Positions 27,927-50,644 of a stretch of 64,000 bases of DNA are shown here, piece after piece. How positions within the stretch are numbered: the stretch's first letter is position 1; every line of letters begins with the position of its first letter. Made by a program: the position numbers and the translations under genes. Below the pieces are notes generated by a model, which worked only from the letters and a program-made list of their open reading frames with translations, was not told the origin of the DNA and made no database searches. This DNA is from an archaeon (GTDB lineage: Archaea > Iainarchaeota > Iainarchaeia > Iainarchaeales > JAAZKV01), in contig JBAYJX010000002.1 of the NCBI GenBank assembly GCA_041664905.1, positions 530 to 64,529 on the forward strand, read 5' to 3'.

Positions 27927-28361
27927 TTATCTTCTAGCTCTTCGCATTTTTGCGGCTCTTGATCTCCCACCACTTGCAATAATTCCTGCGCCCACTAGTC
28001 CGCCAGCCACACCTACCCCGCCAGCAATCATCCCAAATTTTTGCATTGGAGTAAACCTTTTTTTGTTTTTTATTTCTTCAGCATTTTTCTGTTGGCTCGA
28101 TTCATTATTTTTGTGAGATTTAAATAAATTTAATGGGTTTAATTTAAGATTAGGATTAACTGGACTATAGGGATGCATTGGACTTGCAGGAGACAGGGGA
28201 AAAACTCGCGAAGATGCAGGACGTGTTGAAGTCAACTTAGTTGTTTTCGCTTGCACACTACTTGGCCCCATAGCTAATGTTGTTGCAAATATTCCGGCAG
28301 CAACTGCTTTTCCAACTCTCCCAAACCGACTTGGTTTCAAATTATTCCTTTTTACAACCAT
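27927..28361 (-). CDS. small membrane/secreted protein inserted between porG and porD
   Basis: N-terminal signal-like KPSRFGRVGKAVAAGIFATTLAMGPSSVQA. C-terminal glycine-zipper TM GMIAGGVGVAGGLVGAGIIASGG and an RSRAAKMRRARR tail. Confidence 0.5.
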   Translation of the reverse strand: MVVKRNNLKPSRFGRVGKAVAAGIFATTLAMGPSSVQAKTTKLTSTRPASSRVFPLSPASPMHPYSPVNPNLKLNPLNLFKSHKNNESSQQKNAEEIKNKKRFTPMQKFGMIAGGVGVAGGLVGAGIIASGGRSRAAKMRRARR

Positions 28362-28376
28362 AATTATCAAATCATT

Positions 28377-28916
28377 TTATTTTTCTTTTAATGCATTTTC
28401 ATAAACTTCTTTTATTGCATTAATATTCTTTTCAACCATTGGCCCTTTGCTTCCCATTTGTTGTTGTATTGCTTCTTCTAAACCTTTAATACTTACTTCC
28501 CCTGTTAGTGCACTAAATGCACCTAAAGCAGCAATATTCACAAATGGTTTGCCAATTACTTTTAGAGATACTGCTGTAATATCAACGCATTTTATTTTTG
28601 CTTTTGTTTTAAGTCCAAGTTCACTTGGTTTTTTGTTCGAGTTAACTATTATTAGTTTGCTTACTTCTTCATTAAAACTTTTTAACAGAGTTGGATCAAG
28701 TATTATTGCATAATCTGCTTCGTAAACTAATTCTCTTAGAGTAATTTGTTTATCATCTATTCTACAATAACTCTTTACCGGAGCACCCATTCTTTCTACT
28801 CCAAAATTTGGAAAAGCTTGAGAATATTTTCCATCTTTAAATGCAGCTACTGCTAAGACTTGAGCACTAGTAACAGCCCCCTGCCCCCCTCTTCCTAAAA
28901 AAATTATTTGTTTCAA
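28377..28916 (-). CDS. porG: pyruvate:ferredoxin oxidoreductase gamma subunit
   Basis: GRGGQGAVTSAQVLA... is a typical PorG N-terminus. 179 aa. Confidence 0.9.
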   Translation of the reverse strand: MKQIIFLGRGGQGAVTSAQVLAVAAFKDGKYSQAFPNFGVERMGAPVKSYCRIDDKQITLRELVYEADYAIILDPTLLKSFNEEVSKLIIVNSNKKPSELGLKTKAKIKCVDITAVSLKVIGKPFVNIAALGAFSALTGEVSIKGLEEAIQQQMGSKGPMVEKNINAIKEVYENALKEK

Positions 28917-28976
28917 ATCAACTCACCTAATGTTTAAATCTTCAAGACTATTTTGTTAATTCTAGAGTTTAAAAAA

Positions 28977-29000
28977 CTGCCCCTTTGTACAATTGACGAA
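28977..29000. promoter_or_regulatory. perfect inverted repeat GTACAATT-N8-AATTGTAC upstream of porG
   Basis: Arms at 28977-28984 and 28993-29000, read directly. Lies between the stop of the upstream ORF (29021) and an A/T-rich TATA-like tract at 28958-28969. Operator or terminator hairpin is ambiguous. Confidence 0.35.
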
Positions 29001-29020
29001 GAAATTGTACTCGCCCAAAA

Positions 29021-29680
29021 TTAAATTTGTGCTCCTTCAAGCTCTTTTGGTAGAGCAATTATTTTTTCAAAACGTTTAGTCACATCAACTTCTTTTCCAC
29101 GAAAAATAAGCCTTATTCTTACAGCGCCCTTAGGAAAGGTAAAAGTAAACCCAATTCTTTCTAGATGTTTAATTGGCTTGCCTTGCAAGAACTCTTCCGA
29201 GCTTTTGCCAGTTAGTCTTTCAATTACCGCTTGCATATTTTCTTGATGGGTAATATTTTCAAGCACTAATTTTCTTGGAGCACTCTTTCTTTTAACTAGC
29301 CTATATGCCAGGCTTAATCTTTTTTTAATTATTTTATCGGCAGCAATTGCTGGCGGCAATACAATGTCTACAGGAACTTTACCATCAAGCCATGCACGAG
29401 TGGCAATTTCTTTACTACCATAACTTCTCACAATTTCTTCCCAATCAATTCTTTTTAGTGCAGAAGTTGTAAGTTCTGCTTTTTGTCTTGGGTTATATTT
29501 TATCCCCACAGTCTTTGCTGTTTGTGTAGCATATCTTCCAGTGTTTTGGGTTCTCTTAGCTGTTCCAAAATAAAGTTTTGTGTTTGGAACAAGCCCTCTC
29601 CCAAAACCAAATGCACGATTTATTCCCCTTCTTGTTAAACCAGTTTTTGTAGTGTCTTTGCGGTCAGCGTGTCTTCTCAA
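29021..29680 (-). CDS. arginine-rich hypothetical protein downstream of IPK
   Basis: 219 aa with an apparent TTG start. N-terminus MRRHADRKDTTKTGLTRRGINR. 23 Arg by hand count. No family recognised. Confidence 0.5.
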   Translation of the reverse strand: MRRHADRKDTTKTGLTRRGINRAFGFGRGLVPNTKLYFGTAKRTQNTGRYATQTAKTVGIKYNPRQKAELTTSALKRIDWEEIVRSYGSKEIATRAWLDGKVPVDIVLPPAIAADKIIKKRLSLAYRLVKRKSAPRKLVLENITHQENMQAVIERLTGKSSEEFLQGKPIKHLERIGFTFTFPKGAVRIRLIFRGKEVDVTKRFEKIIALPKELEGAQI

Positions 29681-29707
29681 ATTAGCCTAATCAAGTTGCC
29701 ACCACAT

Positions 29708-30508
29708 TTACAATTTTATCTTTGTATCCTTAATATTCTCGCCAAGTATAGCTTTTTTTAAATTCCCTTTAGTAAAGAGATTAAATATTTCTGCAGGGGC
29801 TCCATTTAATTGTTCTGCGAGTTGTTCTAGTTTTCCTTTCATTCCGCCTGTTACATCAACTGATTTTGACTCACCCACTTTTTCCAATATTTTTGGAACG
29901 TTTGCTCGGGTAATTTCTTCAATTAGTTCTGCTTTAGAATCAACTTTTGGGTCCGCGGTGTAAATTCCATCCACATCTGTTCCCATTAAAACTTTTTTTG
30001 GTTTAAAGTGTTTTGCAAGTTGTGCAATTACTTTGTCTCCGCTCATTACGCTCCAAACAAGTTCTTTGTCTTTAACCATTATCCCAGTACTAATAGGAAT
30101 TAATCCTTCCTTTAGTGCTTTTTCGTATGGAGCAAAGTCAAATTTAGTTATTTTTTTGTTTGTTTGTTCACACACTTCATAACCAGGAATAAGTTTTGTC
30201 TTAAGTCCTTCTTGCTCAAGGGCTTTTGCCACGCTCTCCCCAACAAAGTTACAATCCTTGTTTGTTTTTTCTACCCCTTTCTTTTGTTCTTCAGTAGTTA
30301 TCCCATTATTCAAATTGTACATTTTTACATTTGTATGACCAAATGGACCTACTCCACAAACAAGAGCCACTTTTGCTGGCTTTTTTTTAAGTGCGCTCGC
30401 AAGTTCTTTTGCGGATTGTTTTAGTATGTCTTCATTCATTTCAAACTTGTTATCCGCTTTTTGGGTTATTGAAGAACCACCAAATTTTATTACACACAAG
30501 TCATTCAC
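29708..30508 (-). CDS. ipk: isopentenyl phosphate kinase (amino-acid-kinase fold)
   Basis: VIKFGGSSIT, GVGPFGH, DVDGIYTADP, TGGMKGK motifs. GTG start with AGGTG upstream. Confidence 0.85.
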   Translation of the reverse strand: MNDLCVIKFGGSSITQKADNKFEMNEDILKQSAKELASALKKKPAKVALVCGVGPFGHTNVKMYNLNNGITTEEQKKGVEKTNKDCNFVGESVAKALEQEGLKTKLIPGYEVCEQTNKKITKFDFAPYEKALKEGLIPISTGIMVKDKELVWSVMSGDKVIAQLAKHFKPKKVLMGTDVDGIYTADPKVDSKAELIEEITRANVPKILEKVGESKSVDVTGGMKGKLEQLAEQLNGAPAEIFNLFTKGNLKKAILGENIKDTKIKL

Positions 30509-30538
30509 ACAAGCACCTAAAGAAAATTAAAAAAGAAA

Positions 30539-30931
30539 TTATTCAAGTTGAACAATTCCTTTCTCTCCATCAACTTTTACTTTTTGTCCAGTTTTAATTT
30601 GAGCAATATCTATTTTGTCTACGCAAGGAATTTCTGAAATTATTGCTCCAACTGCAACAATTGTTTCGCATTCTTTGTTTACCAAAGCTAATGGTGCAGT
30701 TCCTTGTTTTTTCATCCTGTATAATGCATAGCTTCCCACAGTTGAACCTTTTCCTTGTGGAAAAACTAGTATTTTTCCGCTAACACTTTTTCCTTCTAGT
30801 TCGTGTCCTTTTTCTGTAACTATTCCGTTTGCAGGATCAACTCCGCCAAAGAAACTTACTCCTTGTGTTGTGACAAGTGCTTCTCCGCTTGCAACCCCTG
30901 CACAAATTTTTCTTCCTTTTAGTTCAATCAT
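30539..30931 (-). CDS. aconitase-X swivel-domain subunit (DUF126): putative phosphomevalonate dehydratase small subunit
   Basis: GEALVT...SFFGGVDP..G........G.S..GKILVFP.GKGSTVGS pattern. ATGA overlap with the upstream large subunit. Confidence 0.8.
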   Translation of the reverse strand: MIELKGRKICAGVASGEALVTTQGVSFFGGVDPANGIVTEKGHELEGKSVSGKILVFPQGKGSTVGSYALYRMKKQGTAPLALVNKECETIVAVGAIISEIPCVDKIDIAQIKTGQKVKVDGEKGIVQLE

Positions 30932-32166
30932 TGTTTCACATCCTTCGAAGCTTCAGTCTGAGAAGGCTTCGCAAAATCTGAAGGATTTTGCTGAGCCTTG
31001 CATGCTTCTTCAACTAACTTTTCTATTGGCAAAATTTTTGTTTTGGATTGATTCTTGGAATATGCATAGTAGCATCCTTTTGCTGAGTCGGTTGCAAGAC
31101 ACTTGAATCTTCCTTTTATTGGTGCAACAACACAACATGTATCTGCAGCAAACTTTGCTCCAGCATCTTCAATTATTTTTGAGTAACCTGCATTATCAGC
31201 TATTTTCTTTGTTGGTCTAGCCGTAGTTATCCAAAATTCTTTTGTTACTTTTTTGCCTTTTAATAAATCTGCTAGTTTTGCAATTTCGTGTATGCTTGCG
31301 TGTGGACAACCAACACTTACAAAATCTACTTCGCAGTCCATTGTCATATCAGCTATTGCTTTGTCTAATTCTATTTGTGTTACACTAACTTCTTCAGTAG
31401 GCACAGGAGTTTTGTTTGGAGTTATTCCTTCTATGTGAAATATTGCAGCTCCGCCGTATGTTGCAATGCTTGCTGAAAATGATTTTAGTTCTTCAACACT
31501 TGCTTGGGTTATTCCAGTAATATAAGCTGGTTTTGATTTTATTTTGTCCCCAATTACTTTTCCTAATGCACCAAATTTGTCTGTTCCTTTTACTTGGGCT
31601 TCCACTTTTACTTTTATTTGTGCATTTCTATTTTGATCTAGTTGCATTCCATAAAGAGGAGTTTTCCCTGTTAGTGCTGCGGCTAGTGCACTTGGTCCAC
31701 CTTCTCTATTAGTTCTTGCACCTAAAACTGAATTAGCGTACGCAACAGCTGAACTTTCACTCCATGCAATGTGTTGATTAAAGTGTGGAGTATTTCCAAC
31801 TAAGTAAGGAGTACAAGTGCAGGTTGTAATTATTCCCATTTTTGCGAATGCCTCTATTACTTTTCTTTGTTTTATTGCAAAATCTTCTGGTATCCCTAAA
31901 ACTTTGTAATTTTCTAAATCCATTCCCGCAGGGTTTAGGGTAGTGAGAACTTTTACTTTTCCATCTTTTGCCAAGTCATCTAAAAAATCAAGACCAGCGT
32001 CTCCGAGGTTATCATAACTTACGCCCGCAATTTGTACACTTGTTACATCAACAAGTTTTTCTGCGCCGTAGATTTCTCCAAGCGCAACAAGTATCCCCAT
32101 TGATTTTTTTACGGCCTTACCTTGTTTTCCATCAAGCATTTCTTGTTCTTCTTTGTTTAGTTTCAT
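30928..32166 (-). CDS. aconitase-X catalytic subunit (DUF521): putative phosphomevalonate dehydratase large subunit
   Basis: The LNKEEQEMLDGKQG...SVQIAGVSY...CTCTPY...GCPH pattern is typical of AcnX large subunits. Sits in a mevalonate context. Confidence 0.85.
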   Translation of the reverse strand: MKLNKEEQEMLDGKQGKAVKKSMGILVALGEIYGAEKLVDVTSVQIAGVSYDNLGDAGLDFLDDLAKDGKVKVLTTLNPAGMDLENYKVLGIPEDFAIKQRKVIEAFAKMGIITTCTCTPYLVGNTPHFNQHIAWSESSAVAYANSVLGARTNREGGPSALAAALTGKTPLYGMQLDQNRNAQIKVKVEAQVKGTDKFGALGKVIGDKIKSKPAYITGITQASVEELKSFSASIATYGGAAIFHIEGITPNKTPVPTEEVSVTQIELDKAIADMTMDCEVDFVSVGCPHASIHEIAKLADLLKGKKVTKEFWITTARPTKKIADNAGYSKIIEDAGAKFAADTCCVVAPIKGRFKCLATDSAKGCYYAYSKNQSKTKILPIEKLVEEACKAQQNPSDFAKPSQTEASKDVKQ

Positions 32167-32178
32167 CAAATCACATCC

Positions 32179-33090
32179 TTATGCTGTTTTCTTAACTAAT
32201 TGTCTAAATTTAACTGCAAGCTTACCGTCCAAATAATCTAGGGCTTCGCGTTGAAATTCACGATCGGTTTTATTCAAGGGCGAATAAGCTCGAATTGTTT
32301 CTGCTAAATCTCTTGGTTTTGATTTTAATCCTTCTGCAAATAATGTTGTTACTAAATTCACAATTCCTGGTTCACCACTTTGTAATCCTGATACTAATTT
32401 GTGCTGCCACTCAACTTGATACCTAACAAATGGATGTAAGTGAGAAGGAATTTTTGAGAGATCTGAAAAAGCTGCAAGTCTCTTTGAAGATTCACCCAGG
32501 GTAACATCAACAGCTAATTTTTGTAATTGGTCTTTTTTTGTAATATCTATTTTTTCTTTTGCAATTCTTTCTTTTATATCAGCTCTTTCGCCCATAAACA
32601 TTGCTCTTCTAAATCCAATATAAGCCCCGTTTGCTTCAAAAAATTTATCTGCAAATACAACCCCGTCTCGTACAACATTTTTTCCGATTTCGTTAAGTGC
32701 TGGAAAAGAGCCGTGTTTTGCCATTGCTTCCACTATTGCTTTGGAAGCACTTTTCTTGTACCTGCTTTCAAATAATGGTTGCATGTATTTAGCGCTTCTT
32801 GTTTCATGGGACTCTTCTTTTTTTTGCCCTAAGGATTGCACCGCATCTCGGAATCTATCATGAGTCATTCCAGCTATTCGAGCTTGGGCTCTTTTTTTTC
32901 TTCCCCCACCCATTGCTTTAACATATTCTGCAGCATAGAGGGATACTCTTTGAACATGACCTAAATTATGAGCGCTGGTTAGTTCCCCTTTTTGGCCCAT
33001 TTTTCTAAAAGCTGCTCGCATGTATCTCCCAGCAACTTTCTCTCGTTGAGTCCAACTTGAAAACTTTGCACGTCTTGATTTTATTTGCAT
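32179..33090 (-). CDS. arginine-rich HD-domain phosphohydrolase-like protein
   Basis: H...HD...D pattern (HNLGHVQRVSLYAAEY ... GMTHDRFRD). The ATG at 33090 is preceded by GGTGGA. Confidence 0.55.
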   Translation of the reverse strand: MQIKSRRAKFSSWTQREKVAGRYMRAAFRKMGQKGELTSAHNLGHVQRVSLYAAEYVKAMGGGRKKRAQARIAGMTHDRFRDAVQSLGQKKEESHETRSAKYMQPLFESRYKKSASKAIVEAMAKHGSFPALNEIGKNVVRDGVVFADKFFEANGAYIGFRRAMFMGERADIKERIAKEKIDITKKDQLQKLAVDVTLGESSKRLAAFSDLSKIPSHLHPFVRYQVEWQHKLVSGLQSGEPGIVNLVTTLFAEGLKSKPRDLAETIRAYSPLNKTDREFQREALDYLDGKLAVKFRQLVKKTA

Positions 33091-33186: not shown

Positions 33187-34284
33187 TCATCTCTTTTTTA
33201 TTATTACTCCTTTGTCTCTTTTAGCACTAAACTCTAACAAATCCCCTTCTTTAATACTCACAGTCGCATTATGCACTCCAACAATACAAGGAATTTTGTA
33301 TTCTCGTGATAAAATTGCTACATGACTGCCTGCACCACCCTCTTCAGAAACAATCCCTTTAGACTTCATGACATAAATCATTTCTTCAGGCATTAATCGA
33401 GTTACAACAACTATTGAGCCTACCGGAACTCGTGTTAAATCCTTTTTTGATTTTACAATAAATGCCTTGCCTTCAATAGTTCCAACTGATGCAGTTACTC
33501 CAGTAAGCACAGACGGAGGATTTGTTTTCTCAAACGGATCCATTTGTTTTGCAAATTGTTTTTCTGCACTCACGCCACATAATATTTCCCTTCTGCCTTT
33601 AGTGTATAAATATACCCCAAACTTTTTTCTTTGCAGGGTAGTAGATACTAGGGATTGTTTAATACTGGTTTTTGACTCAAATATTTTTAATAGTTCAGCA
33701 GGAGTTAAATAATACAACACAGATTCTGGCACTAAAAGCCTTTTGCTCAATTCCAAAAATAGTTTTTTAAGAATTATTTTTTCACACCGTATATAAGGCA
33801 TATCAGAACGTATTCTCTCAATTTGTCCTTCAAGCGCCAGTCTTACTTGTTTATCTTTAATGCTGGATAGGGCATCGGCAAAATAATATCCAAAAGAATA
33901 ATAATCCCAAAATTTTAATGATAGTTCATAAAATGCTCTATAATTAACCGCAAGCACGGCTATAGAACAATCACCAAGATTTGTTCCATTAATTTTTTCT
34001 GCTAGCAAAATAAGCTCAGCACTATTATTTTCTATTGTATCGAGAATTGATCTTACCTTAGCCGTATTGTCCACGGCCAATTCTTTTAGATAACTATCTA
34101 ACCTAACTAAATCTTTTGAGTTTCGGTAAGAAGTTGTTTTGCTATGCTCACACACTACAAGGAGATCCCTAAAAACAAACCCAATGCTATTTTGCCAAGT
34201 AGTAGTGTAAGCATTTGCAAAAAAATAAACAGATGTAAAAGTATGGTCTCTAACAAACCCTTTTACCCAGTTAATTCTTTCCAA
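33187..34284 (-). CDS. protein with a C-terminal PEP-utilizer mobile (phosphohistidine swivel) domain and an unrecognised N-terminal domain
   Basis: The C-terminus GKAFIV...GSIVVVTRLMPEEM...KGIVSEEGGAGSHVAILSREYKIPCIVG matches the swivel-domain His motif. Apparent TTG start with GGGTG upstream. Confidence 0.65.
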   Translation of the reverse strand: MERINWVKGFVRDHTFTSVYFFANAYTTTWQNSIGFVFRDLLVVCEHSKTTSYRNSKDLVRLDSYLKELAVDNTAKVRSILDTIENNSAELILLAEKINGTNLGDCSIAVLAVNYRAFYELSLKFWDYYSFGYYFADALSSIKDKQVRLALEGQIERIRSDMPYIRCEKIILKKLFLELSKRLLVPESVLYYLTPAELLKIFESKTSIKQSLVSTTLQRKKFGVYLYTKGRREILCGVSAEKQFAKQMDPFEKTNPPSVLTGVTASVGTIEGKAFIVKSKKDLTRVPVGSIVVVTRLMPEEMIYVMKSKGIVSEEGGAGSHVAILSREYKIPCIVGVHNATVSIKEGDLLEFSAKRDKGVIIKKR

Positions 34285-35606: not shown

Positions 35607-36092
35607 TTATTTAGCTCGCTTGGATTGACCTTCAATATCAATTTCAAGTAAATCCTCTACTGTTTTATTCTTCAATACAAATTGCTCTCGTTGGTATTTA
35701 GACATTTTTGGTCCATGTTCACCCCACCGTAAGAGCTGTGAATAAAGTAATGGATTTTTTCTAAAAGAATGAAGTTTTAATTCAGACACTAACATTTTTG
35801 CTAATTTAGGTCTACCTGAAACTTCCGAAATTATACTTAGATTAATTGCATGGCTTTTACGATTAGCATCTCTAGCTATGCCTTTACCCAAATATAATCC
35901 AACTGCCGCCCCGAGAACAGGATGTTCTTTATGTAGTGTTCCCAATACAGTTGCTACCATAGGAGTATCTTTTTCAACACCTTTCAAAAGAGCCGTTACC
36001 ATGTTTCGTTTTCTTACAGTTTTCACATACTTTTTGGGAGTAACCAGTCCTTCCGCTTGCCTTACCCGATTGTTTCTTAGTCCGATTCGCAT
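35607..36092 (-). CDS. arginine/lysine-rich hypothetical protein between ubiX and the UbiD-like gene
   Basis: The ATG at 36092 (MRIGLRNNRVRQAEG...) is preceded by GGTGAT, which removes the apparent overlap with ubiX. No family recognised. Confidence 0.5.
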   Translation of the reverse strand: MRIGLRNNRVRQAEGLVTPKKYVKTVRKRNMVTALLKGVEKDTPMVATVLGTLHKEHPVLGAAVGLYLGKGIARDANRKSHAINLSIISEVSGRPKLAKMLVSELKLHSFRKNPLLYSQLLRWGEHGPKMSKYQREQFVLKNKTVEDLLEIDIEGQSKRAK

Positions 36093-36687: not shown

Positions 36688-37620
36688 TTATTGGACTTTT
36701 AGTTTTGTTGCACCGTACCCTTTTCCAAGTAGGGATGCAACTATTTTGTCTTGTTGTTTATCCCCTTCGCATAAAATCAAAATATTTCCTGCGTGTCCAG
36801 CAAGTTTTGCCCCAAATGCTCCTTCAAAAGTTGCTATTCGAATTATTTGATCAACTTCAGGGAAAGTTATTCCTAAGTCTGAAAGAATAGCTTGGTTTTG
36901 GGCCATTAGTCTTCCTATTTCTTGGTTTCCACCATATTTTAGTTCATCTTTTAATTTTGTAACTATTTTTTTTAAGTCACTTGCTGCAGAACTTATTTCT
37001 TTTGGTTTTGCAGTTTTCTTTTCATCAAACTTCTTTCGTAAATCAGAAGGAGTTACTTTTGAATTTGCTTTTGCAACTACAAAAAATAATGGTTTTGCAG
37101 CACGCAGTGATTTTGGTTTTGATTCAGCACTGGTTTCTTCAATTATCACCATTGAATCTAGCGTTGATACTGCTGCGTGAACCTTTAGTTCAGTGCACCC
37201 AACTTCTTTTAACGCAAGTGCTGCAGAATTATACACTCTATCACTTTTCCAATTTTCAATTGATAATTGATCTACCGCTTTTTCGATTGCAACGCAAAGA
37301 ACTGATTCATATCCTTGGGTTTCTTTTGTCATTGTTCCGTTTATTGTTAATTTGTATCCTTTTTTTGGCATATCAATTTCTTTGCCAAACAGAGAATCAA
37401 TAAACTTTGATTCTAACTTATCTTTTCCAGTAAGTTTTAGGAATTTTTCTTTTGTTATTTGATTATCAATTTCTACATCTTCTAATTCTTTTTTTTTCTC
37501 AACCTTTGCTTCAATAAATAATGTTGAAGGAAATGCTACTGTTTGTGCCCCTATTTCTCCTAGGTATTCCCCAAAAAATATTTCTGCCGCAAAGGCTTTT
37601 CCACTCATTTTTTCAGCCAT
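36688..37620 (-). CDS. degenerate GHMP-kinase-like paralog of mevalonate kinase
   Basis: The ends resemble the neighbouring MVK. AAEIFFGEYLGEIG matches KTILFGEHFVVYG, and GAKLAGHAGNILILCEG...GKGYGATKLKV matches GAKLTGTGRGGLVIALTPG...AKGYTVTKTQ. The Gly/Ser-rich motif II is missing. Confidence 0.5.
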   Translation of the reverse strand: MAEKMSGKAFAAEIFFGEYLGEIGAQTVAFPSTLFIEAKVEKKKELEDVEIDNQITKEKFLKLTGKDKLESKFIDSLFGKEIDMPKKGYKLTINGTMTKETQGYESVLCVAIEKAVDQLSIENWKSDRVYNSAALALKEVGCTELKVHAAVSTLDSMVIIEETSAESKPKSLRAAKPLFFVVAKANSKVTPSDLRKKFDEKKTAKPKEISSAASDLKKIVTKLKDELKYGGNQEIGRLMAQNQAILSDLGITFPEVDQIIRIATFEGAFGAKLAGHAGNILILCEGDKQQDKIVASLLGKGYGATKLKVQ

Positions 37621-38610: not shown

Positions 38611-40032
38611 CTATTTCTTTCTCATTACTAATAACCAGTTTAAGTTTCCTGTGTTTAATTCACCTGGCTTTGCTATTGGGTACTCAGGATTTGTTGTGCT
38701 TAATCCAAGTCTTGTTGCTTCTCTTTGCATTGCGCTACCCAGTCGGTATGCTCTGTTTCGGTATCCAAATGGTTTTTGAAGTCCAGGTCTTCCAATTTTT
38801 GTTGCACCTGTTTTTTTATCAACCCATTGTTCAGTTTGTCTTGCGTGTTCCATCCAATCCCGATTCTTTTCCGCCCACGCAGTAAAATCAAATCTTGTTG
38901 AAGCATTAATATCGGCAATCATTCTGTTGACTACTTGTGGAGGATATCCATATGAACGCATCCAAAAATTCAAAAAAGATATGTATGCATCATAATGAGT
39001 TATTTTTTTACCGTCTTCTGCTACCCCAACTATTGCTTTTTTTAACGCTGGAACGTTTACGCTTGGTGATCTTACTTCCGCACTTCCCCAGTCCCAATTA
39101 ACAAACATTCCGCCTGATTTAAGCAAGCGCTTTACACTTCGTAAGTAGGGTTTCAAATCTGTGGCAAAGTTTATTGTTGCAGCCCCCGCAGTCACGGCAT
39201 CAACTTTGCCAATTAGTTTAACAAATTCTTTTGAATATGTTCTTTCTCCTTTTTCGTGGAGTGGTTTTGGCATAACCCCTAGTGATACTGCCGCATTATA
39301 AAAATTTACTGGTAAAACTTTAATATTTTCTCTAAGCACCCCCAAATCCTCTAATTCATGAACAGCATATTTTTTTACAATTTCTCCTGCAACATCAACT
39401 AAAACAACCTTAAGCAACGCTCTCTGTTTGGGTTTCATTGCAGCAACAACTTCTTTTACTGTGCCCCCTGCAAAAGTACCAATATCTAAAATAGTTCTTG
39501 GTTTAACTTCATCTCCAAACATTTTTGCAATTCTTTCTCCAGCAATTTGATTCATTCTATTTGGATTTCCTTTTCCTGCTGCCGCAATTCTATCAATATA
39601 TTCTTTATCCGCAGTTACCCAAAATTTTGATGCTTTTATTCCGCGTTCTCGTGTTGCAGCTCTAAGTTGTTTTTCAAGTCTTGAGTTTAATTCAGGGTGC
39701 TGTCTAATTAGTGCTTGGATTTGTGGAACTCTATTAATTTCCTGTGCAAGTCTAGGAAGGGGAACAAAGTTATGAACTGTTTCTTTTGGAACTTTTGCAT
39801 AATCGTGCCCGATTTGATCAAGAGGATAAGGTTTTTCGCGAGCAGGATAAAATAATTGTTGTATACCTGGATTTGCTTGTCGAGCTATTTGTGAATCAAT
39901 ATCTTGCGCACTTTTTCCAAGCATATAAAGTGCTAATTCTCTTTTGTTAATTGGTTTTCTTGCACCAAATTGAGAAACTATTGCTCGGCGAAACTTTTTC
40001 CTAGCAACTTTAGCACTATGTGATAAACGCAT
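38611..40032 (-). CDS. arginine-rich class-I SAM-methyltransferase-like protein
   Basis: Motif I-like ILDIGTFAGGT, post-I VVLVDVAG, and LLKSGGMFVNWDWG. Basic N-terminus MRLSHSAKVARKKFRRAIV. First gene after a 279-nt gap that contains a TATA-like tract. Confidence 0.55.
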   Translation of the reverse strand: MRLSHSAKVARKKFRRAIVSQFGARKPINKRELALYMLGKSAQDIDSQIARQANPGIQQLFYPAREKPYPLDQIGHDYAKVPKETVHNFVPLPRLAQEINRVPQIQALIRQHPELNSRLEKQLRAATRERGIKASKFWVTADKEYIDRIAAAGKGNPNRMNQIAGERIAKMFGDEVKPRTILDIGTFAGGTVKEVVAAMKPKQRALLKVVLVDVAGEIVKKYAVHELEDLGVLRENIKVLPVNFYNAAVSLGVMPKPLHEKGERTYSKEFVKLIGKVDAVTAGAATINFATDLKPYLRSVKRLLKSGGMFVNWDWGSAEVRSPSVNVPALKKAIVGVAEDGKKITHYDAYISFLNFWMRSYGYPPQVVNRMIADINASTRFDFTAWAEKNRDWMEHARQTEQWVDKKTGATKIGRPGLQKPFGYRNRAYRLGSAMQREATRLGLSTTNPEYPIAKPGELNTGNLNWLLVMRKK

Positions 40033-40144
40033 GTAAATATTATTTCTCCAAAGTTTATATTTGTGAGGGTTAATGTTTTTCTTAAAAAAATCATCTTTGA
40101 ACTAACCCCTTCTTAAAGCTTGTCCAATTTTTCTTGAAGAGTGA

Positions 40145-40294
40145 TTGCCTTTGCCTAAATGTGGTGTTTGTGGTTGTGAAAACTGTCTTGTCTTCTATAA
40201 TCGTGCTGTTAGTGAGTATTATACTGGCGTTAAAGAAAAAATTACTATTTGTAGTTATTGTAAATCTACTGAAATAAAAAAAGAAGTTGTTTAG
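40145..40294 (+). CDS. possible small zinc-ribbon ORF (49 codons, TTG start)
   Basis: My own translation: (M)PLPKCGVCGCENCLVFYNRAVSEYYTGVKEKITICSYCKSTEIKKEVV, with two CxxC pairs. Opposite strand to all neighbours, and the start is weak. Confidence 0.25.
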   Translation: MPLPKCGVCGCENCLVFYNRAVSEYYTGVKEKITICSYCKSTEIKKEVV

Positions 40295-40311
40295 TTCCAA
40301 AAAATTTTGTT

Positions 40312-40748: not shown

Positions 40749-40958
40749 TTATTGTATTCTTCTTTTGTATTCACTTCTTTTTACTAATGGTTCTTCCATT
40801 GCTTTGTCTTCTCTCCATTTTTTTGCAATTTTCCATCTTTGACCATTTTCGTCTTCTCGAACAGGAGCTTCTACTCTTCTTGCTTCTATTCTGTGCGGAA
40901 CTTGTGTGTCCCATTTTTCTTCTTTTTTTCCAAATAATCTTTCTAATAATCCAGCCAT
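40749..40958 (-). CDS. small highly charged protein (69 aa) between thiolase and DUF35
   Basis: MAGLLERLFGKKEEKWDTQVPHRIEARRVEAPVREDENGQRWK... The ATG is preceded by AGGTGA. No family recognised. Confidence 0.5.
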   Translation of the reverse strand: MAGLLERLFGKKEEKWDTQVPHRIEARRVEAPVREDENGQRWKIAKKWREDKAMEEPLVKRSEYKRRIQ

Positions 40959-42139: not shown

Positions 42140-42862
42140 TCACTTTAATCCAAACCAACCTTTAACATTTGCTTTTGTTTTTCCAATTACTTCAATTGTT
42201 TGTGCCCCACTAGGCGTATCAAATGTTATTATTTCTTTTCCTGCAGCATTTTTAGAAATTGTTGCATTTGTAATCTCTTTTCTGTCTATTTCCATTTGAC
42301 CTTTTGTAGCAGGATTATATAATTCCATTTTTGTTCCAACAAATCGCACTCCTGTTTTTACTCCGTTGTGTTTTGATTCAGTAAATGTTCCACCCATTAA
42401 AGCGATTAAGTTTTTTACAAGCATTCTGTTTGGTCCGGAAACATTTGTAAAAAATACTCTTCCTTTTGCATCAACATAAACAAATTTTTTTTGCAAATCT
42501 ACAACACTTTTCAATAACGCAGAGTCTCTTGCCATTTCTGCTGAAAGAGTGTAGAGTATCATGTTAGCTGCACCGTTGGCTTTTACTCTTTGCGCTTCAG
42601 TTTCTTTCACTACTCTTAATAATAAAGCTGAACTTGCAAAATCTGCCAGTGCTACTGTGCTTTGAGCAAGGTATGTTCCTTTCTCGGATTTTTCTCCTTT
42701 CTGTAATCCTCTTACCACATCTACTGCGTTAAAAAAAGTAGTATTTATTGAACTTTCTCCCCCATTCCAAAATGCACTCCTCACTTTTTTTCTTGCCTCA
42801 ACCGCTTTTGGAACAACTTGCGCTGCCGTACGGCCCCTCAAACTAAATAATCTGTGTGGCAT
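42140..42862 (-). CDS. hypothetical protein inserted between HMG-CoA synthase and thiolase
   Basis: MPHRLFSLRGRTAAQVVPKAVEARKKVRSAF... in 240 aa. Starts 10 nt after the HMGCS stop and ends 5 nt before the thiolase ATG. No family recognised. Confidence 0.5.
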   Translation of the reverse strand: MPHRLFSLRGRTAAQVVPKAVEARKKVRSAFWNGGESSINTTFFNAVDVVRGLQKGEKSEKGTYLAQSTVALADFASSALLLRVVKETEAQRVKANGAANMILYTLSAEMARDSALLKSVVDLQKKFVYVDAKGRVFFTNVSGPNRMLVKNLIALMGGTFTESKHNGVKTGVRFVGTKMELYNPATKGQMEIDRKEITNATISKNAAGKEIITFDTPSGAQTIEVIGKTKANVKGWFGLK

Positions 42863-44001: not shown

Positions 44002-44070
44002 GGTATAAAAACCTTTCCAATATGACGAAGCAAAGTTCGGCAATTGACGTGAACAGGGGGGTTTCTCCGC
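44002..44070. promoter_or_regulatory. conserved upstream element, copy 1 (TATA plus ACGAAG-N16-GACG), upstream of the HMGCS operon
   Basis: ggtataaaaacctttccaatatgacgaagcaaagttcggcaattgacg aligns at ~40 of 47 positions with 48691-48737. Confidence 0.5.
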
Positions 44071-44155: not shown

Positions 44156-44163
44156 GTGTTATC

Positions 44164-44963: not shown

Positions 44964-45914
44964 ATGCCTGCATTACAACTTAAGTCCCCTCGCGCAATGA
45001 GTCGGAGACTTAACACAATTAAATTTTTTCAAACGCATGGAGCTAAGATAGATAAATTTGGAACTGCAGCAGGAATTACTGCGGCAGTTACGGGCGCTGC
45101 AACTTCAAGAAGCATTCCGCTAGTTTTAGGTGCAGGAACATTACTTATTGGTGCAGCGTATAGAAAAAAAATTGCGCCAAATCTTTCACAATACCTTTCA
45201 ACAAATATTTCTAAATTAATTGGAAATAAAGAATTTTCTCACCAAGTTAGCCAAACCGTTTCTAACCCCGAACTAAAATCCTTGGTTCGCTGTGCTGGCC
45301 AAGTACAAACAGCTGAAGAAAAAGGGGCTTTTGAAAGATTCACTCGAGGCAAACAAATTTTAAGTGACACAAAAATATTAAGAGGAATTTTTGCAAGAGA
45401 AATTAGAGAAAATTATCGGTCAAAATCCAAAGATTTGCTTAATGAGGCCAGAAAACTTTCTTTATCATTTAGAAGCAACTCGATTAATTATGAAAAATTA
45501 ACTTCTGTTGCAAAAAACATTGCATTAAAGAATCAAAAAAATCTTGGTAAAGAGAATTGGATGCGTGACACTATGGTTGGCTCTTTTCAATCAGCACTTG
45601 GTTTTGGTTTACTGGGGGCGATGGATAGAGCTAGAATTGTTGACCGCAGGACACGAGAAGAAATTATTAAAACACTTACCCCAAAAATAAACGAAGCTGT
45701 TCAAACACTTGGACGAGTTAATTCTTTTTGGGAAAAAAGAGTACAGGAAGAATTAGTGGAAAATATTAGAGCTTTGGGACAAGAAGCAATCCCAAACCTT
45801 AGACATGTACTTGACGCTATTGATCCAACTCTTGTTGTTGAAATGAGTAACCACATTTATACAGCTGCGGGAACCGAAAGTAGTATGCTTGTATTAAATT
45901 CTGTGCAAAAATAA
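44964..45914 (+). CDS. hypothetical membrane-associated protein with a basic N-terminus
   Basis: MPALQLKSPRAMSRRLNTIKFF..., with hydrophobic GITAAVTGAA / LVLGAGTLLIGAAY segments. No family recognised. Confidence 0.45.
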   Translation: MPALQLKSPRAMSRRLNTIKFFQTHGAKIDKFGTAAGITAAVTGAATSRSIPLVLGAGTLLIGAAYRKKIAPNLSQYLSTNISKLIGNKEFSHQVSQTVSNPELKSLVRCAGQVQTAEEKGAFERFTRGKQILSDTKILRGIFAREIRENYRSKSKDLLNEARKLSLSFRSNSINYEKLTSVAKNIALKNQKNLGKENWMRDTMVGSFQSALGFGLLGAMDRARIVDRRTREEIIKTLTPKINEAVQTLGRVNSFWEKRVQEELVENIRALGQEAIPNLRHVLDAIDPTLVVEMSNHIYTAAGTESSMLVLNSVQK

Positions 45915-47215: not shown

Positions 47216-47260
47216 CGTATCCCCTCGTTTTTTTGCTTAATCAAATAAATTGGCTTTACT

Positions 47261-48607
47261 TTAAATATCCTTGTTAGAGGAATCAATTTTTGGAACTACT
47301 TTTTCAATGTTGTCAACGTGCTTTATTCCCATTGCTTCGTTTGCTGTTTTTGAGTCCAAATACTTTATTATGGCAACAGCGGTTTTTCTCCCAGCATCAA
47401 TTGCGTGTATTACTGTTTTTGGTCCGTGTACACAATCCCCTGCAGCGAATACATTTGGGATTGTTGTTTGGAAACTTTTGCTTACTTCAATACACCCATT
47501 TTTTCCTGTTCTTATTGGGGTCTTTAGGGAATCATCGTCATGTTCTTGCCCTATTGCACAAATTACTTTTGTGCATTCAATTTTTCCGTTTATGTGGTTT
47601 GAATATACAACCGCTTCTACTTTGTCTGTGCCCAGTATTTCTTTTACTCGGGCTTGGAAAATAAATTTTACCCCTTCTTCTTTTGCTTCTTCATAGTCTT
47701 TTGGTGAAACACTTTTTGTTGCTTCATTTTCTGCAGCAACAGTTACACAAGTTACATCTCCGCCTAATCGAATTGCACTTCTTGCTGCATCAATCCCCAC
47801 ATATCCTGCTCCAACTACTACTACTTTTTCATTTGAAACAATCATTGGAATATTTGATTGGTTCATATTAATTAAAAATTTCATTGCTGACATTACTCCT
47901 TTAAGTGACGAACCCGGAACATCAATTAGTCTTGGTTTCCCTACCCCAGTTCCAATAAATACAGCATCATATCTTTTTGAAATTACATCTAGTCCTTCTT
48001 CATCAATTTTTGCATTTGGTTCAAAATCAACTCCTAAATTGTGTAGTCCTGTTAACTCTCGTGAAACAACTTCTTTAGGTAAGCGAAATTCTGGAACACC
48101 GTATTTTATTACTCCCCCAAATGCATTTGTCCCTTCAAGTATTGTTACATGCATTCCAATCATAGATAAATATGCAGCTACTGCTAATCCGCTTGGGCCT
48201 GAACCAATTACTGCAATATTTTTTCCGACTAAGTTACGTTTTTCTGGAAAAGGAGAACTGTCCCCAATAAATCTTTCTATTCCTCCAACACAGACTGGGC
48301 CGGCAGGAGTTTTTGATAAGATACAAAATCCTTCGCATTGTTTTTCGTGTTGACAAATTCTTCCGCATATGCTTGGGAAAAAGTTTCTTTCTCTTATAAT
48401 TGAAACTGCGCTAACAATATTTCCTTCTTTGAATGCTTTAATAAAACCAGGAATGTTTACTCCTGCAGGACATCCTTTTACACAATTAGGAACTGGGCAT
48501 TGAAGACAGCGTGCCGCTTCATTCACAGCTTGTTCAGCAGTGAACCCTGTTTCCACTTCTTTGAAAGTAGTTTTTCTTTCTTCAAGAGGGAGTAATGGAA
48601 CTTTCAT
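47261..48607 (-). CDS. GltD/SudA/NfnB-family NAD(P)H-dependent FAD/Fe-S oxidoreductase
   Basis: N-terminal Cys clusters (CLQCPVPNCVKGCP, CGRICQHEKQCEGFC) and two Rossmann GxGxxG motifs (VIGSGPSG, VVGAGYVG). ATG at 48607 after GGTG. Confidence 0.8.
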   Translation of the reverse strand: MKVPLLPLEERKTTFKEVETGFTAEQAVNEAARCLQCPVPNCVKGCPAGVNIPGFIKAFKEGNIVSAVSIIRERNFFPSICGRICQHEKQCEGFCILSKTPAGPVCVGGIERFIGDSSPFPEKRNLVGKNIAVIGSGPSGLAVAAYLSMIGMHVTILEGTNAFGGVIKYGVPEFRLPKEVVSRELTGLHNLGVDFEPNAKIDEEGLDVISKRYDAVFIGTGVGKPRLIDVPGSSLKGVMSAMKFLINMNQSNIPMIVSNEKVVVVGAGYVGIDAARSAIRLGGDVTCVTVAAENEATKSVSPKDYEEAKEEGVKFIFQARVKEILGTDKVEAVVYSNHINGKIECTKVICAIGQEHDDDSLKTPIRTGKNGCIEVSKSFQTTIPNVFAAGDCVHGPKTVIHAIDAGRKTAVAIIKYLDSKTANEAMGIKHVDNIEKVVPKIDSSNKDI

Positions 48608-48690
48608 CTTTAACACCAAAATATCTAAGTTACTTGTATACTTAGGCCAAAAATTGCCTCACCAGAATAGAAGTATTACTTGGAAGTAGT

Positions 48691-48765
48691 GTTATAAAAA
48701 CCTTTCCAAAAAACGAAGTTAAGTTCGGCAATAGACGAAGTTAGAGGGGCTTAGAGGGGTTTTTT
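48691..48765. promoter_or_regulatory. conserved upstream element, copy 2, upstream of the GltD-like/HMGR operon
   Basis: gttataaaaacctttccaaaaaacgaagttaagttcggcaatagacg, followed by the direct repeat ttagagggg x2 and a T-run. Confidence 0.5.
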
Positions 48766-48804
48766 ACTAAAAAGCAACGTAATTAATTAGATTAAAACAA
48801 AATT

Positions 48805-49851
48805 TTATTGTTTTAACCAGTCTTTTAATTTTCCTAATAAAATTGGTTTTTCTAAGTGAAGTTCACTTAGGTCTTTGCATCCGGTTAAGAAGGAAGCAAT
48901 TTCCATTTCCTTTTTAAAATTAGATAAATATTCTACTATTCCACTAGCACCATCTTTTTGTTGTGCCTTAAGTACTGGCATTGCATTACCAACCATGTCC
49001 GCGCCTAACACAATTGCTTTTACTCCTTCAAGCCCGTTACGTATTCCACCTGTTGCAATTACTTTTTTTGTAGTAGAGTGTAATGCGTTTTTTGTTTCAA
49101 TTAAAGTTACTGCTGTGGGTAAACCAAATTCTCTAAAAACTAATCCAAATCCATTTTTGTGTCTTAGTGAATCAACTGCTGTCCAACTTGTTCCGCCAGC
49201 CCCTTGTACATCAATTGCTTTTATTTTTGTTTCTTTTAGGGCCATTGCAACACCGTAAGATATTCCGTGTCCAACTTCTTTAACATAAACAGGAACTTTT
49301 ATTTTATCACTAAACTCAGTAACTTTTGCAACGAGTCCTGAAAAATCTGCATCCCCTTCTGGTTGAACTGCTTCTTGGGCTGCATTTAAGTGAATCGCAA
49401 GAGCATCAGCTTCTATTGCAAGTAATGCTTCATTTATTTGTTCAGGAGTGAATTCTTTTAACTGAGCAGCACCAATGTTTCCTGCTAAAAAAATATCCGG
49501 AGCAACATCTCTTACAAAGTAAGTGTCCATTAAAGAGGGTTGTTGTATCATCGCACGCATACTGCCTAACCCCATTCCTACTCCCAACTCTTGACATGCT
49601 CGAGCAATATCAAGATTAATTTTTTTTGATACTTGCGCTCCGCCAGTTATTGCAGAAGCAATAAATGGAAAAGAAAACTTTTTACCTAAAAAATCAGTAC
49701 CTAAATTAACTTCGTTTAAATTTAATTCAGGCAAAGATTTGTAATTTAGTTCAACGCATTCAAGAAGAGTTGTTTTATCATTAAATGAAACGTTTTTTGT
49801 TGAACACAATTTTATGTGATCGGCTTTTCTTTTTTCTATTGTTGAAACCAT
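48805..49851 (-). CDS. fni: isopentenyl-diphosphate delta-isomerase, type 2 (FMN-dependent)
   Basis: KRKADHI, GLGSMRA, VKEVGHG, QGAGGTSW motifs. 348 aa. Confidence 0.9.
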   Translation of the reverse strand: MVSTIEKRKADHIKLCSTKNVSFNDKTTLLECVELNYKSLPELNLNEVNLGTDFLGKKFSFPFIASAITGGAQVSKKINLDIARACQELGVGMGLGSMRAMIQQPSLMDTYFVRDVAPDIFLAGNIGAAQLKEFTPEQINEALLAIEADALAIHLNAAQEAVQPEGDADFSGLVAKVTEFSDKIKVPVYVKEVGHGISYGVAMALKETKIKAIDVQGAGGTSWTAVDSLRHKNGFGLVFREFGLPTAVTLIETKNALHSTTKKVIATGGIRNGLEGVKAIVLGADMVGNAMPVLKAQQKDGASGIVEYLSNFKKEMEIASFLTGCKDLSELHLEKPILLGKLKDWLKQ

Positions 49852-49933
49852 GAAACATACTTATTCATCGGTGGTTAAAAACCTATTCTAGAAAAGAACC
49901 AACTTTTTATATAAGAAAAACTCCAAATATATT

Positions 49934-50644
49934 ATGTCTTTTGGTAAAGCTAGTGAATTTGCGATGCGCATTCAAAGTAAAGCAAGAGGGATTAGATTAA
50001 GTAAAAAAAGAACTGTTTTTCCAAGTAGTTCAGGAGACTCGGTTGCTATAAGCAAAAGAGGGGTTGTAAAATTTTTTGCTGAAGGAAATGTTGTTTACCC
50101 CAGGCCTGCCGGTAGAAAATCTGGTCCGCCTATAACAAATCATGAAGCGATAAAATACTATTCTTCTTTAATGCACGAAAAATTTTGGGAACCACACACA
50201 GCTTACACAGGAGCAAAAAAAATAGAATATTTTTCGGTGAGGCCAGTTAAACTAATTAAAGAATCAGCAAGGTATCATGTTGTTGAGAGAGTTGCTGGCC
50301 CAAATCTACAAGACCTCTTAAGTTATGTTCAAGCAAAAACTACCCCCAAATTAAGTGATGTTGCTAATTTAACAGAAAATGCTAAATTGGGTCAACAAGC
50401 AAGAAGAGATTCTCTTGCAAGATTTATAAAATCTCACAAAAATGAATTAAGGGCTTGGAAAAGCAGTGTTGGTTTGTTTCATAACGAATTTTCTAGTCAG
50501 CTCCACTGGATAACTAGTAATTCTTATTCAGGAATAACTGACATGTATCAAAGTCACTTAAAAGAAAGCGATTTTATTGTAGAGGGATTTGAAAAAAGAG
50601 AAGGCAAAGTTATAATCAAATTAGTTATGGCTGATTTTAAATAA
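49934..50644 (+). CDS. arginine-rich hypothetical protein, possibly a degenerate kinase-like fold
   Basis: MRIQSKARGIRLSKKR N-terminal region. HVVERVAGPNLQDLL resembles the hinge IVMEYIAGVELKEVL of the Bud32 gene in this window. No clear catalytic loop. Confidence 0.45.
   Translation: MSFGKASEFAMRIQSKARGIRLSKKRTVFPSSSGDSVAISKRGVVKFFAEGNVVYPRPAGRKSGPPITNHEAIKYYSSLMHEKFWEPHTAYTGAKKIEYFSVRPVKLIKESARYHVVERVAGPNLQDLLSYVQAKTTPKLSDVANLTENAKLGQQARRDSLARFIKSHKNELRAWKSSVGLFHNEFSSQLHWITSNSYSGITDMYQSHLKESDFIVEGFEKREGKVIIKLVMADFK

Follow-up and report, generated by a model that had tools for sequence, protein, structure and literature searches.

Polycationic, nearly cysteine-free proteins interleaved with the mevalonate genes of a DPANN archaeon include a predicted methyltransferase-fold protein and putative phosphatases

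Introduction

Why would a small archaeon carry strongly basic proteins, one at a time, between the genes for pyruvate oxidation (POR) and those of the mevalonate (MVA) pathway? The question is raised by a 64,000-nucleotide (nt) stretch of archaeal DNA (contig JBAYJX010000002.1, positions 530 to 64,529, assembly GCA_041664905.1; hereafter the window), in which ten basic open reading frames (ORFs) were singled out as candidates c1 to c10. Nine of them (c1 to c9) lie inside positions 27927-50644, and c10 lies outside the cluster (Table 1). An earlier note, made by reading the sequence, had described them as arginine-rich, unrecognisable but real and co-transcribed, each beginning with a dense basic stretch, and had proposed that they were either accessory partners of the pathway enzymes or bearers of a shared N-terminal tag. 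Here, we find that the ten ORFs are best read as heterogeneous, lineage-specific, polycationic and almost cysteine-free accessory proteins, with a methyltransferase/phosphatase set among them.

The genomes of DPANN archaea are tiny, and the source of their membrane lipids is debated. The source of the window (GC content 34%) was treated as a small DPANN archaeon of the Diapherotrites/Micrarchaeota neighbourhood, because the named homologues of c5 are called 'Candidatus Diapherotrites archaeon', 'Candidatus Micrarchaeota archaeon' or simply 'archaeon' by their sources. For synteny and homology, related or comparison loci and contigs were fetched and numbered L001 to L021. L020 (GCA_041662845.1) is an independent, near-identical assembly of essentially the same strain; L002, L003, and L004 are closer relatives, with housekeeping genes ~70-87% identical to those of the window, and L001 is a relative with 48-67% protein identity. 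The lower MVA route is of the AcnX/UbiD type in the window, L001, L002, and L004, and of the MVD/PMK type in L010, L012, L014, L016, and L017.

Results

A predicted methyltransferase-fold protein accompanies the mevalonate genes

The family of c5 comprises 31 homologues (32 proteins with the query) in a database of 5.8 billion proteins. In most genomic contexts the homologue adjoins MVK, and in the others it lies within 1 to 2 genes of it, so that the linkage held in every context examined. An AlphaFold2 (AF2) model built from a 26-sequence alignment reached a mean local confidence (pLDDT) of 87 and a global score (pTM) of 0.88, and the basic N terminus was modeled as a well-packed helix (pLDDT 83-96). 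A Foldseek search of the Protein Data Bank (PDB) gave 241 matches at E ≤ 1e-3, and all 50 of those listed were S-adenosylmethionine (SAM) methyltransferases or proteins of methyltransferase fold. The leading matches, with a probability of 1.0, were small-molecule C-methyltransferases (the CurJ C-methyltransferase domain, Coq5, CouO, NovO, GPP 2-C-methyltransferase, and UbiG); TM-scores to the top structural matches were 0.25-0.6 at 9-18% identity, low enough that the likeness may reflect only the Rossmann core.

Both sequence motifs expected of such a fold were present, namely motif I, ILDIGTFAGGT, with a one-residue insertion relative to DxGxGxG, and an acidic motif II, VLVDV; D183, G185, G189, and D213 were invariant. 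Searches from sequence gave weaker signals, with Pfam methyltransferase models below threshold (E = 0.017-0.25), a best PDB sequence profile of only E = 0.007, to DisA, and a weak, generic tRNA-methyltransferase match in PHROG (E = 0.003). The model thus assigns c5 to the class-I SAM-methyltransferase fold, and SAM binding and methyl transfer are predicted for it. With Coq5, UbiG, GPP 2-C-methyltransferase, CurJ, CouO, and NovO it shares a Rossmann-type core, the Gly-rich motif I, and the acidic motif II. Unlike these small-molecule enzymes, it has ~170 N-terminal and ~130 C-terminal residues of its own, a net charge of +35, and a family of 32 proteins. Several C-methyltransferases of the Coq5/UbiG type use prenylated or prenyl-diphosphate substrates.

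Upstream of c5 lies a 279-nt gap (40033-40311), whose sole ORF, of 69 amino acids (aa), is Phe/Asn/Thr-rich and looks non-coding. An internal promoter may be provided by the element AAATATAAA, which precedes the c5 ATG by ~25 nt.

Table 1. Coordinates of the ten candidate ORFs and of other features of the window discussed in the text
Feature	Position	Strand	Description	Context or basis
c1	27927-28361	-	144-aa small protein	Between PorG and PorD; translation
c2	29021-29680	-	219-aa putative divergent histidine phosphatase superfamily (branch 1) protein	Directly after IPK; profile, motif
c3	32179-33090	-	~303-aa HD-domain-like putative phosphohydrolase, net +24	Between PEP-utilizers swivel protein and AcnX
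c4	35607-36092	-	161-aa basic protein	UbiX-UbiD slot; no Pfam/NCBIfam match
c5	38611-40032	-	473-aa predicted class-I SAM-methyltransferase-fold protein, net +35	AF2, Foldseek, conserved MVA linkage
c6	40749-40958	-	69-aa highly charged protein, 14.5% Arg, net +5	Thiolase-DUF35 slot
c7	42140-42862	-	240-aa basic near-orphan, 5.3% Arg, net +18	HMGCS-thiolase slot
c8	44964-45914	+	316-aa basic protein	Downstream of ZIP transporter; translation
c9	49934-50644	+	236-aa basic orphan	Between IDI2 and GGPPS; no family match
c10	14439-15068	-	209-aa Arg-rich orphan, 11% Arg, net +28	Outside cluster
MVA/POR array	23854-51765	-	Co-directional array backbone	Orthologues in L002, L004; Pfam scans
Swivel protein	33187-34284	-	365-aa protein, C-terminal PEP-utilizers (phospho-His swivel) domain	PF00391, E = 3e-19; adjoins c3
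Box, copy 1	44008-44064	-	Conserved box + TATA-like element	Upstream of HMGCS
Box, copy 2	48696-48752	-	Conserved box + TATA-like element	Upstream of GltD-like-HMGR unit

c3 and c2 resemble two families of phosphatases

The Pfam HD model (PF01966) matched c3 just below its cut-off (E = 3e-4, 21.4 bits versus 22), and H46, H50, H82-D83, and D153 were invariant in four homologues. Homologues were found in the MVA clusters of L012 (64% identity), L017 (56%), L014 (37%), and L010 (26%), and the one from L010 scored clearly against the same model (E = 2.6e-9, 37.8 bits); the match of c3 to PDB entry 2pq7 was weak (E = 0.05). Conservation of the H...HD...D pattern thus marks c3 as a probable HD-type, metal-dependent phosphohydrolase, with the activity predicted. 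It differs from known HD phosphohydrolases in its length of ~300 aa, which includes a long extension at the C terminus, in its polycationic charge, and in its tie to MVA genes, and no characterised relative was found. Both c5 and c3 are kept in the MVA cluster throughout the lineage, irrespective of the lower-MVA route of the genome.

Close homologues of c2 share 51-60% identity with it, and those in L002, L003, and L004 (55-57%) also follow IPK; six of them share the motif LRRH(A/S)(D/E)RKD. A profile search of 1.84 billion representatives gave 91 relatives, and in a 50-sequence alignment R3, H4, and R43 were invariant and H145 was at least 90% conserved. While c2 of the window alone had no Pfam match, 34 of the 50 relatives matched PF00300 (His_Phos_1; best E = 1e-13), and the family profile matched phosphoglycerate mutase (PGM)-type phosphatases in the PDB (E = 1e-8). 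An hhalign comparison of the c2 alignment with one His_Phos_1 protein had been negative, and the link came later from the deeper profile. The AF2 model, from six sequences, was poor (pLDDT 68), with histidine phosphatases as top Foldseek matches (E = 0.04-0.6). These profiles and motifs place c2 in the histidine phosphatase superfamily as a divergent member of predicted activity. It shares the RH...R...H catalytic quartet with branch 1 proteins such as PGM-like enzymes, SixA, PhoE, and CobC, but its own branch is very divergent, polycationic, and Cys-poor.

The window copy differs further by an in-frame TAG. On the minus strand, 29681-29707 reads ATG TGG TGG CAA CTT GAT TAG GCT AAT, followed by the TTG start of c2, so that the TAG stands three codons before this start and interrupts the expected first beta-strand. 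In relatives, an uninterrupted MPRKIIVNLRRH-type N terminus supplies the first strand of the phosphatase fold. Read-through, a nonsense mutation, or an error of assembly could account for the TAG.

Single-sequence scans of all ten ORFs against Pfam, NCBIfam, PHROG, and PADLOC gave nothing significant, which agrees with the earlier description of the set as unrecognisable; profiles and structure prediction resolved three of the ten, and for c5, c3, and c2 that description has to be given up.

The candidates sit in slots of an ancestrally compact gene array

Nearly every gene between ~7 and 53 kb of the window is on the minus strand, and this region includes the array into which the candidates are set. 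Its backbone runs PorB (with an intein), PorA, PorD, PorG, IPK, AcnX small and then large subunit, UbiD, UbiX, a second GHMP kinase, MVK, DUF35, thiolase, HMGCS, HMGR, a GltD-like oxidoreductase, IDI2, and GGPPS, with a ZIP transporter on the other strand after HMGCS and before HMGR. The genes were identified by their 70-87% identity to Pfam-annotated orthologues in L002 and L004 and by Pfam scans, which covered 20 window ORFs. In L001 the order is HMGR-HMGCS-thiolase-DUF35-[231-aa ORF]-[c5 homologue]-MVK-UbiX-UbiD-AcnX-IPK-IDI2, with genes that overlap or abut, and c5 is the only candidate with a homologue there. The statement that such genes are elsewhere adjacent or in simple operons was thereby borne out, and the comparison suggests that the candidates are lodged in slots of an ancestrally compact, co-directional MVA/POR array.

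Positional homologues were present in related DPANN contigs for five of the ten candidates (c2, c3, c4, c5, and c6). Since these five keep their exact slots, the homologues are not scattered within the close clade. Across divergent genomes, MVA linkage was retained by c5 and by c3 (L010, L012, L014, and L017); for c2, c4, and c6 it was confined to the close clade, and distant members of the c2 family lie elsewhere; no such linkage was established for c1 and c7 to c10.

The same slots in relatives hold other, non-homologous and equally basic ORFs. Interior ORFs of L014, L016, L017, L001, and L004 mostly had 7-15% Arg, 0% Cys, and net charges of +15 to +36, and such polycationic ORFs recurred at genome GC contents from 33 to 49%. 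Among the non-pathway ORFs of nine loci, 22 of 44 inside MVA/POR clusters and 12 of 74 outside were polycationic and Cys-free under a strict definition (odds ratio 5.2, p = 1.4e-4, an optimistic value because homologous families were counted repeatedly). Also present in the relatives' clusters were, in L002, a HAD hydrolase that is itself polycationic, in L014 a His_Phos_1 protein, and in L016 a protein with a weak GNAT match. Other slots held a DDE transposase and a PemK toxin-antitoxin pair (L002, 683-1864 and 10700-11309), a three-gene sensor kinase/response regulator block between HMGR and HMGCS (L016, 1561-7049), and TnpB (L017, 2608-3822). The mobile or selfish genes captured there indicate that the slots tolerate insertions.

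The ten ORFs are genuine, native and fast-evolving genes

All ten ORFs were confirmed from the ORF list and its translations at the positions first given for them. Gene calls in L020 matched the window, with the same ATG starts, for c4 (161 aa), c5 (473 aa), c6 (69 aa), c7 (240 aa), and c8 (316 aa), and no alternative long ORF was found on the opposite strand of the candidates. Both GC at third codon positions (GC3, ~0.21) and Arg codon choice were the same in candidates and neighbours, as expected of native genes. Because the window and L020 are ~100% identical, the ratio of nonsynonymous to synonymous changes between them was uninformative, and comparisons with more distant relatives, by codon-position mismatch and by conservation of residue classes, took its place. 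Codon position 3 differed more than positions 1 and 2 in nine of ten candidate/homologue comparisons. The candidates were 30-68% identical to homologues where neighbours were 69-87% identical, corresponding to evolution two to four times faster. These comparisons mark the ten ORFs as genuine, native, fast-evolving protein genes of a narrow lineage.

The claim that they are co-transcribed fared less well than the claim that they are real, since c8 and c9 are encoded on the strand opposite to the cluster and are not co-transcribed with it. Gaps of 5-30 nt were seen around c4, c6, and c7 and on one side of c1, c2, and c3, but not upstream of c5. GGTG(A)-type motifs resembling Shine-Dalgarno sequences lie ~10-13 nt upstream of three candidates (c3, c4, and c6), with none such noted for the other seven, and also precede the neighbours PorG, IPK, UbiX, and UbiD.

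Base composition explains much of the arginine but not the lack of cysteine

The candidates are indeed unlike their neighbours in composition. Pooled Arg was ~8.2-8.3% in the ten candidates versus 2.9% in 27 neighbouring enzymes, and pooled Cys 0.1% versus 1.3%, while Lys was alike (10.0% versus 10.1%). The hand counts first reported (23 Arg in 219 aa for c2, 23 in 209 for c10, and 4 in 314 for MVK) were exact. Most candidates had net charges of +17 to +35; c6 is Arg-rich yet only weakly positive overall, and c7 and c9 (6.4% Arg) are milder.

To see what sets this charge, we used a null model that draws random codons from the coding-strand base frequencies (A 0.39, G 0.21, C 0.15, T 0.25). The model predicted 8.7% Arg, 10.0% Lys, 3.5% Asp, and 5.3% Glu, where the candidates had 8.3, 10.1, 3.2, and 6.1%; net charge per 100 residues was +9.9 in the model and +9.1 in the candidates, compared with +0.9 (2.7% Arg) in housekeeping enzymes. 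The coding strand is purine-rich, and the charged-residue make-up of the candidates is its neutral expectation. Much of the Arg excess, which the earlier note had called sharp, is thus what results when charge is not pushed back toward neutrality. In relatives, Arg content increased with genome GC. Cys departed strongly from the model, with 2 residues observed versus 53 expected, and Ala, Gly, Ile, Asn, and Tyr were at the levels of folded proteins and not at random ones.

Conservation of the charge was examined next to its origin. The K/R class was retained at 74% of positions in the candidates at 60% overall identity, compared with 71% in housekeeping proteins at 69% identity, where it was the least conserved class; in the candidates, basic positions were no less conserved than the other residue classes. 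Net charge was +22 or higher in each of the 28 full-length c5 homologues. In the c2 superfamily branch, the median net charge was +26, with 87% of 82 representatives at +10 or above and 74% entirely Cys-free. This conservation suggests that the charge of the candidates is not mere drift. As richness in Arg and strong basicity come close to what base composition predicts, the informative signals are the near absence of Cys, the conserved basic positions, and the conserved slots, and in genome scans Arg content alone would be misleading in an AT-rich, purine-loaded genome.

The candidates do not form one family

An all-against-all BLASTP comparison, in a small database, gave no match between candidates at E ≤ 0.05, and homology was confined to within the c5, c3, and c2 families. 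Profile comparison with hhalign, made for selected pairs of candidates and of slot-sharing ORFs from distant relatives, gave probabilities of at most 3%. The candidates are therefore a heterogeneous set and not a single family, and a common-tag system is not indicated.

Seven candidates fall outside the three families described above. c1 has a signal-like N terminus, a Pro/Ser-rich middle, and a C-terminal hydrophobic helix with an RRARR tail; its one clear hydrophobic segment spans ORF residues 114-132 (KD19 hydropathy 1.91), and it looks like a small signal- or tail-anchored membrane protein. It had no homologue in any fetched locus and no Pfam, PHROG, or PADLOC match. A homologue of c4 (~40% identity) occupies the same UbiX-UbiD slot in L004, and 68-aa homologues of c6 (44-49% identity) occupy its slot in L004 and L010/L011; GGGTGA and AGGTGA, respectively, stand 10 nt upstream of c4 and c6. 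Apart from its copy in L020, c7 matched a single ORF, weakly (31% over 75 aa), upstream of thiolase in L004, and a word-indexed search returned c7 alone. The N-terminal region of c8 is rich in Gly/Ala and moderately hydrophobic; for the protein as a whole, the searches gave no homologues other than near-identical cluster members and no Pfam/NCBIfam match. For c9 and c10, no homologue was found in any fetched locus or in viral contigs.

Discussion

We favour the view that the candidates are accessory proteins of isoprenoid metabolism, with the methyltransferase and phosphatases working close to the anionic membrane to tailor a phosphorylated intermediate and with the small slot proteins as partners of adjacent enzymes, and we hold this proposal with about even confidence. 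In such a scheme, positive charge would have been tolerated at first and then maintained, presumably since a polyanionic partner serves these proteins as substrate or docking site. At the anionic surface of the membrane, the c5 methyltransferase together with the phosphatases (HD and His phosphatase, and HAD in relatives) would modify a phosphorylated isoprenoid or a phosphorylated intermediate of the mevalonate pathway, and c4, c6, and c7 would be fast-evolving proteins that partner the enzymes of adjoining genes. The observation that a methyltransferase and an HD, HAD, or His phosphatase accompany the MVA genes under both the AcnX/UbiD and the MVD/PMK-type routes is consistent with this scheme. 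The lineage keeps a complete mevalonate pathway, always with the uncharacterised methyltransferase-fold protein and usually with at least one of these phosphatases, and this co-retention suggests that isoprenoid metabolism has a step or branch here that is yet to be studied. Proteins of the c5, c3, and c2 types are concrete candidates for biochemistry.

Several points weigh against this proposal. For every candidate, the case for a tie to an isoprenoid substrate, the membrane, or a neighbouring enzyme is indirect. The TM-scores of c5 are low, and strong basicity in methyltransferases, phosphatases, and GNATs is a usual trait of enzymes that modify RNA. Part of the compositional signal needs no functional explanation, as the charge fits the neutral expectation. 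Adjacency in this genome is weak functional evidence because nearly all genes of the ~7-53 kb region share one strand; distant c2-family members occur in unrelated genomic contexts; and outside near-identical strains, c1, c8, c9, and c10 lack homologues.

The main alternative, which we judge rather unlikely, is that the candidates bind or modify nucleic acids, mainly RNA, have nothing to do with isoprenoids, and owe their positions to co-directional packing under a small number of promoters in a streamlined genome. It gains plausibility from the basicity typical of RNA-modifying enzymes and from the unlinked distant relatives of c2. Net charges of +20 to +36 and a lack of Cys are typical of RNA-binding proteins, and Arg makes up 6-7% of the S15 and Bud32 proteins encoded in the window. 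Methyltransferase, HD, His-phosphatase, GNAT (L016), and HAD (L002) folds all include members that modify RNA ends or bases, and the weak PHROG match of c5 was to tRNA methyltransferases. Against it, c5 keeps its place near MVK, and c3-like HD proteins theirs in the MVA cluster, even in relatives whose lower pathway has been rearranged or replaced. The best structural matches of c5 were to small-molecule C-methyltransferases and not to RNA methyltransferases, and the Pfam and NCBIfam scans detected no known RNA-binding domain.

It is more doubtful that c1 and c7 to c10, along with the non-homologous slot ORFs of relatives, are simply young or rapidly turning-over genes that originated in intergenic slots or drifted there, whose composition mirrors the bases of the coding strand and which have little or no specific function. 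The match of their charge to the null model, the rise of Arg with genome GC, the low identities relative to neighbours, the absence of homologues of c1 and c7 to c10 beyond near-identical strains, and the presence of unrelated ORFs in the same slots of different lineages would all fit. Against this stand the missing Cys, the other residues at folded-protein frequencies, lengths of 209-316 aa, which are long for random frames at ~35% GC, and the purifying patterns of the conserved families c2 to c6.

A stronger form of the accessory-protein proposal holds that the polycationic, Cys-free proteins form a functional class in these archaea, in which the slot proteins (c4, c6, c7, and their non-homologous counterparts in relatives) assemble with the enzymes of adjoining genes and, along with the methyltransferase and phosphatases, tether an MVA/POR metabolon electrostatically to the anionic membrane or to RNA, with the methyltransferase and phosphatases forming a tailoring branch. 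We consider this a long shot; if true, it would mean an undescribed branch yielding a methylated or dephosphorylated isoprenoid.

That the candidates share an N-terminal Arg-rich targeting or assembly tag, directing them to a common compartment, complex, or export route, seems improbable. The dense basic stretch that inspired the idea is statistically detectable and modest. In nine of the ten candidates, residues 2-26 contained 5-9 K+R and 0-2 acidic residues, whereas the other proteins of the window averaged 3.6 K+R (0.8 Arg). When each candidate's own composition was taken into account, the 5-9 K+R found per candidate compared with 4-5.6 expected, a small enrichment per protein, and a hand-computed Fisher combination of the per-protein p-values gave ~0.003. 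The basic N terminus was also kept in most members of the c5 and c2 families. The tag is nevertheless unsupported, because the stretch is a confidently packed helix of the fold in c5, includes the catalytic RH motif in c2, and is the n-region of a signal peptide in c1. No motif is shared, and neither BLASTP nor hhalign gave any sign of a common origin. Among the window ORFs that were translated and read (20 of them scanned against Pfam), there were no shell, encapsulin, or dedicated secretion genes. Encapsulation and targeting peptides of bacterial microcompartments and encapsulins, as well as Tat and Sec signals, are likewise short basic or amphipathic N termini on otherwise unrelated proteins, but they differ from the candidates, which lack a shared motif, of which c5 has the stretch within its fold, and of which only c1 resembles a classical signal peptide.

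Cargo of mobile elements, viruses, or defence islands inserted in the operon, or annotation artefacts, can be practically dismissed, for although the slots of relatives hold the PemK pair and DDE transposase (L002), TnpB (L017), and sensor kinases (L016), PHROG and PADLOC gave nothing significant besides the generic methyltransferase match, the three candidates queried (c7, c9, and c10) had no relatives in viral contigs, GC3 and Arg codon choice were native, a repeat search found no cassette-like or flanking repeats around the ORFs, and L020 gave the same gene calls with no alternative long ORF on the other strand. Paralogy and an origin by horizontal gene transfer were also considered and rejected or down-weighted, given the lack of cross-similarity and the native GC3 and Arg codons.

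All backbone genes of archaeal MVA clusters, the thiolase-HMGCS-DUF35 operon and the AcnX/UbiD/UbiX/IPK lower route, are present and co-directional; thiolase, HMGCS, and DUF35, the last of which scaffolds a thiolase/HMGCS complex, are neighbours as in other archaea, and L001 represents the compact form. Unlike known archaeal clusters, those of the window and of related DPANN contigs are joined to POR, IDI2, and GGPPS and interleaved with polycationic, Cys-free ORFs. Papers on the distribution and synteny of the archaeal MVA pathway (PMC6107057, PMC11052028) make no mention of such interleaved ORFs. Nothing pertinent emerged from a literature search on Arg-rich or basic DPANN proteins and on the occurrence of a methyltransferase or an HD protein among clustered MVA genes. 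What is new here is the presence of very divergent members of known superfamilies in a variant MVA cluster, and not a categorically new system.

Other features of the window

The two boxes of Table 1 consist of a core, ATTGCCGAACTTnnCTTCGT, followed by GGAAAGGTTTTTATA; the exact core occurs twice in the window versus 0.08 occurrences expected. They are probably a common promoter or operator of two mevalonate transcription units. Rfam and tRNA scans were empty, and the boxes had no Rfam match.

The swivel protein next to c3 is mildly basic (5.5% Arg, net +14) and has no domain other than its C-terminal one. Its homologues flank a c2-family member in L018 (6899-7933 and 8689-11754), an arrangement that hints at a pair of a phospho-His protein and a SixA-like phosphatase; L021 lacks this pairing. 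The second GHMP-kinase paralogue (36688-37620, between MVK and UbiX) is divergent, with 23% identity to MVK over 192 aligned residues, and Pfam scored only its GHMP C-terminal domain. It is kept in L012 (57%) and L004 (35%), and the pathway already looks complete without it. A scan of metagenomes with UbiD yielded only two short close loci.

PorB, the thiamine diphosphate-binding POR subunit (23854-25872), contains an intein and is 672 aa long compared with 304 aa in L016; its orthologues in L002 and another relative also match Intein_splicing/LAGLIDADG. The long gap between c1 and PorD is due to a 51-nt tandem duplication (27805-27906, 98% identical), which spans the PorD start codon and 5' region. 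Finally, a 2149-aa protein and two more Cys-containing, Arg-poor proteins (7235-13684 and 20987-23823) look secreted or surface-exposed, and the composition of these three putative surface proteins is the opposite of that of the basic class.

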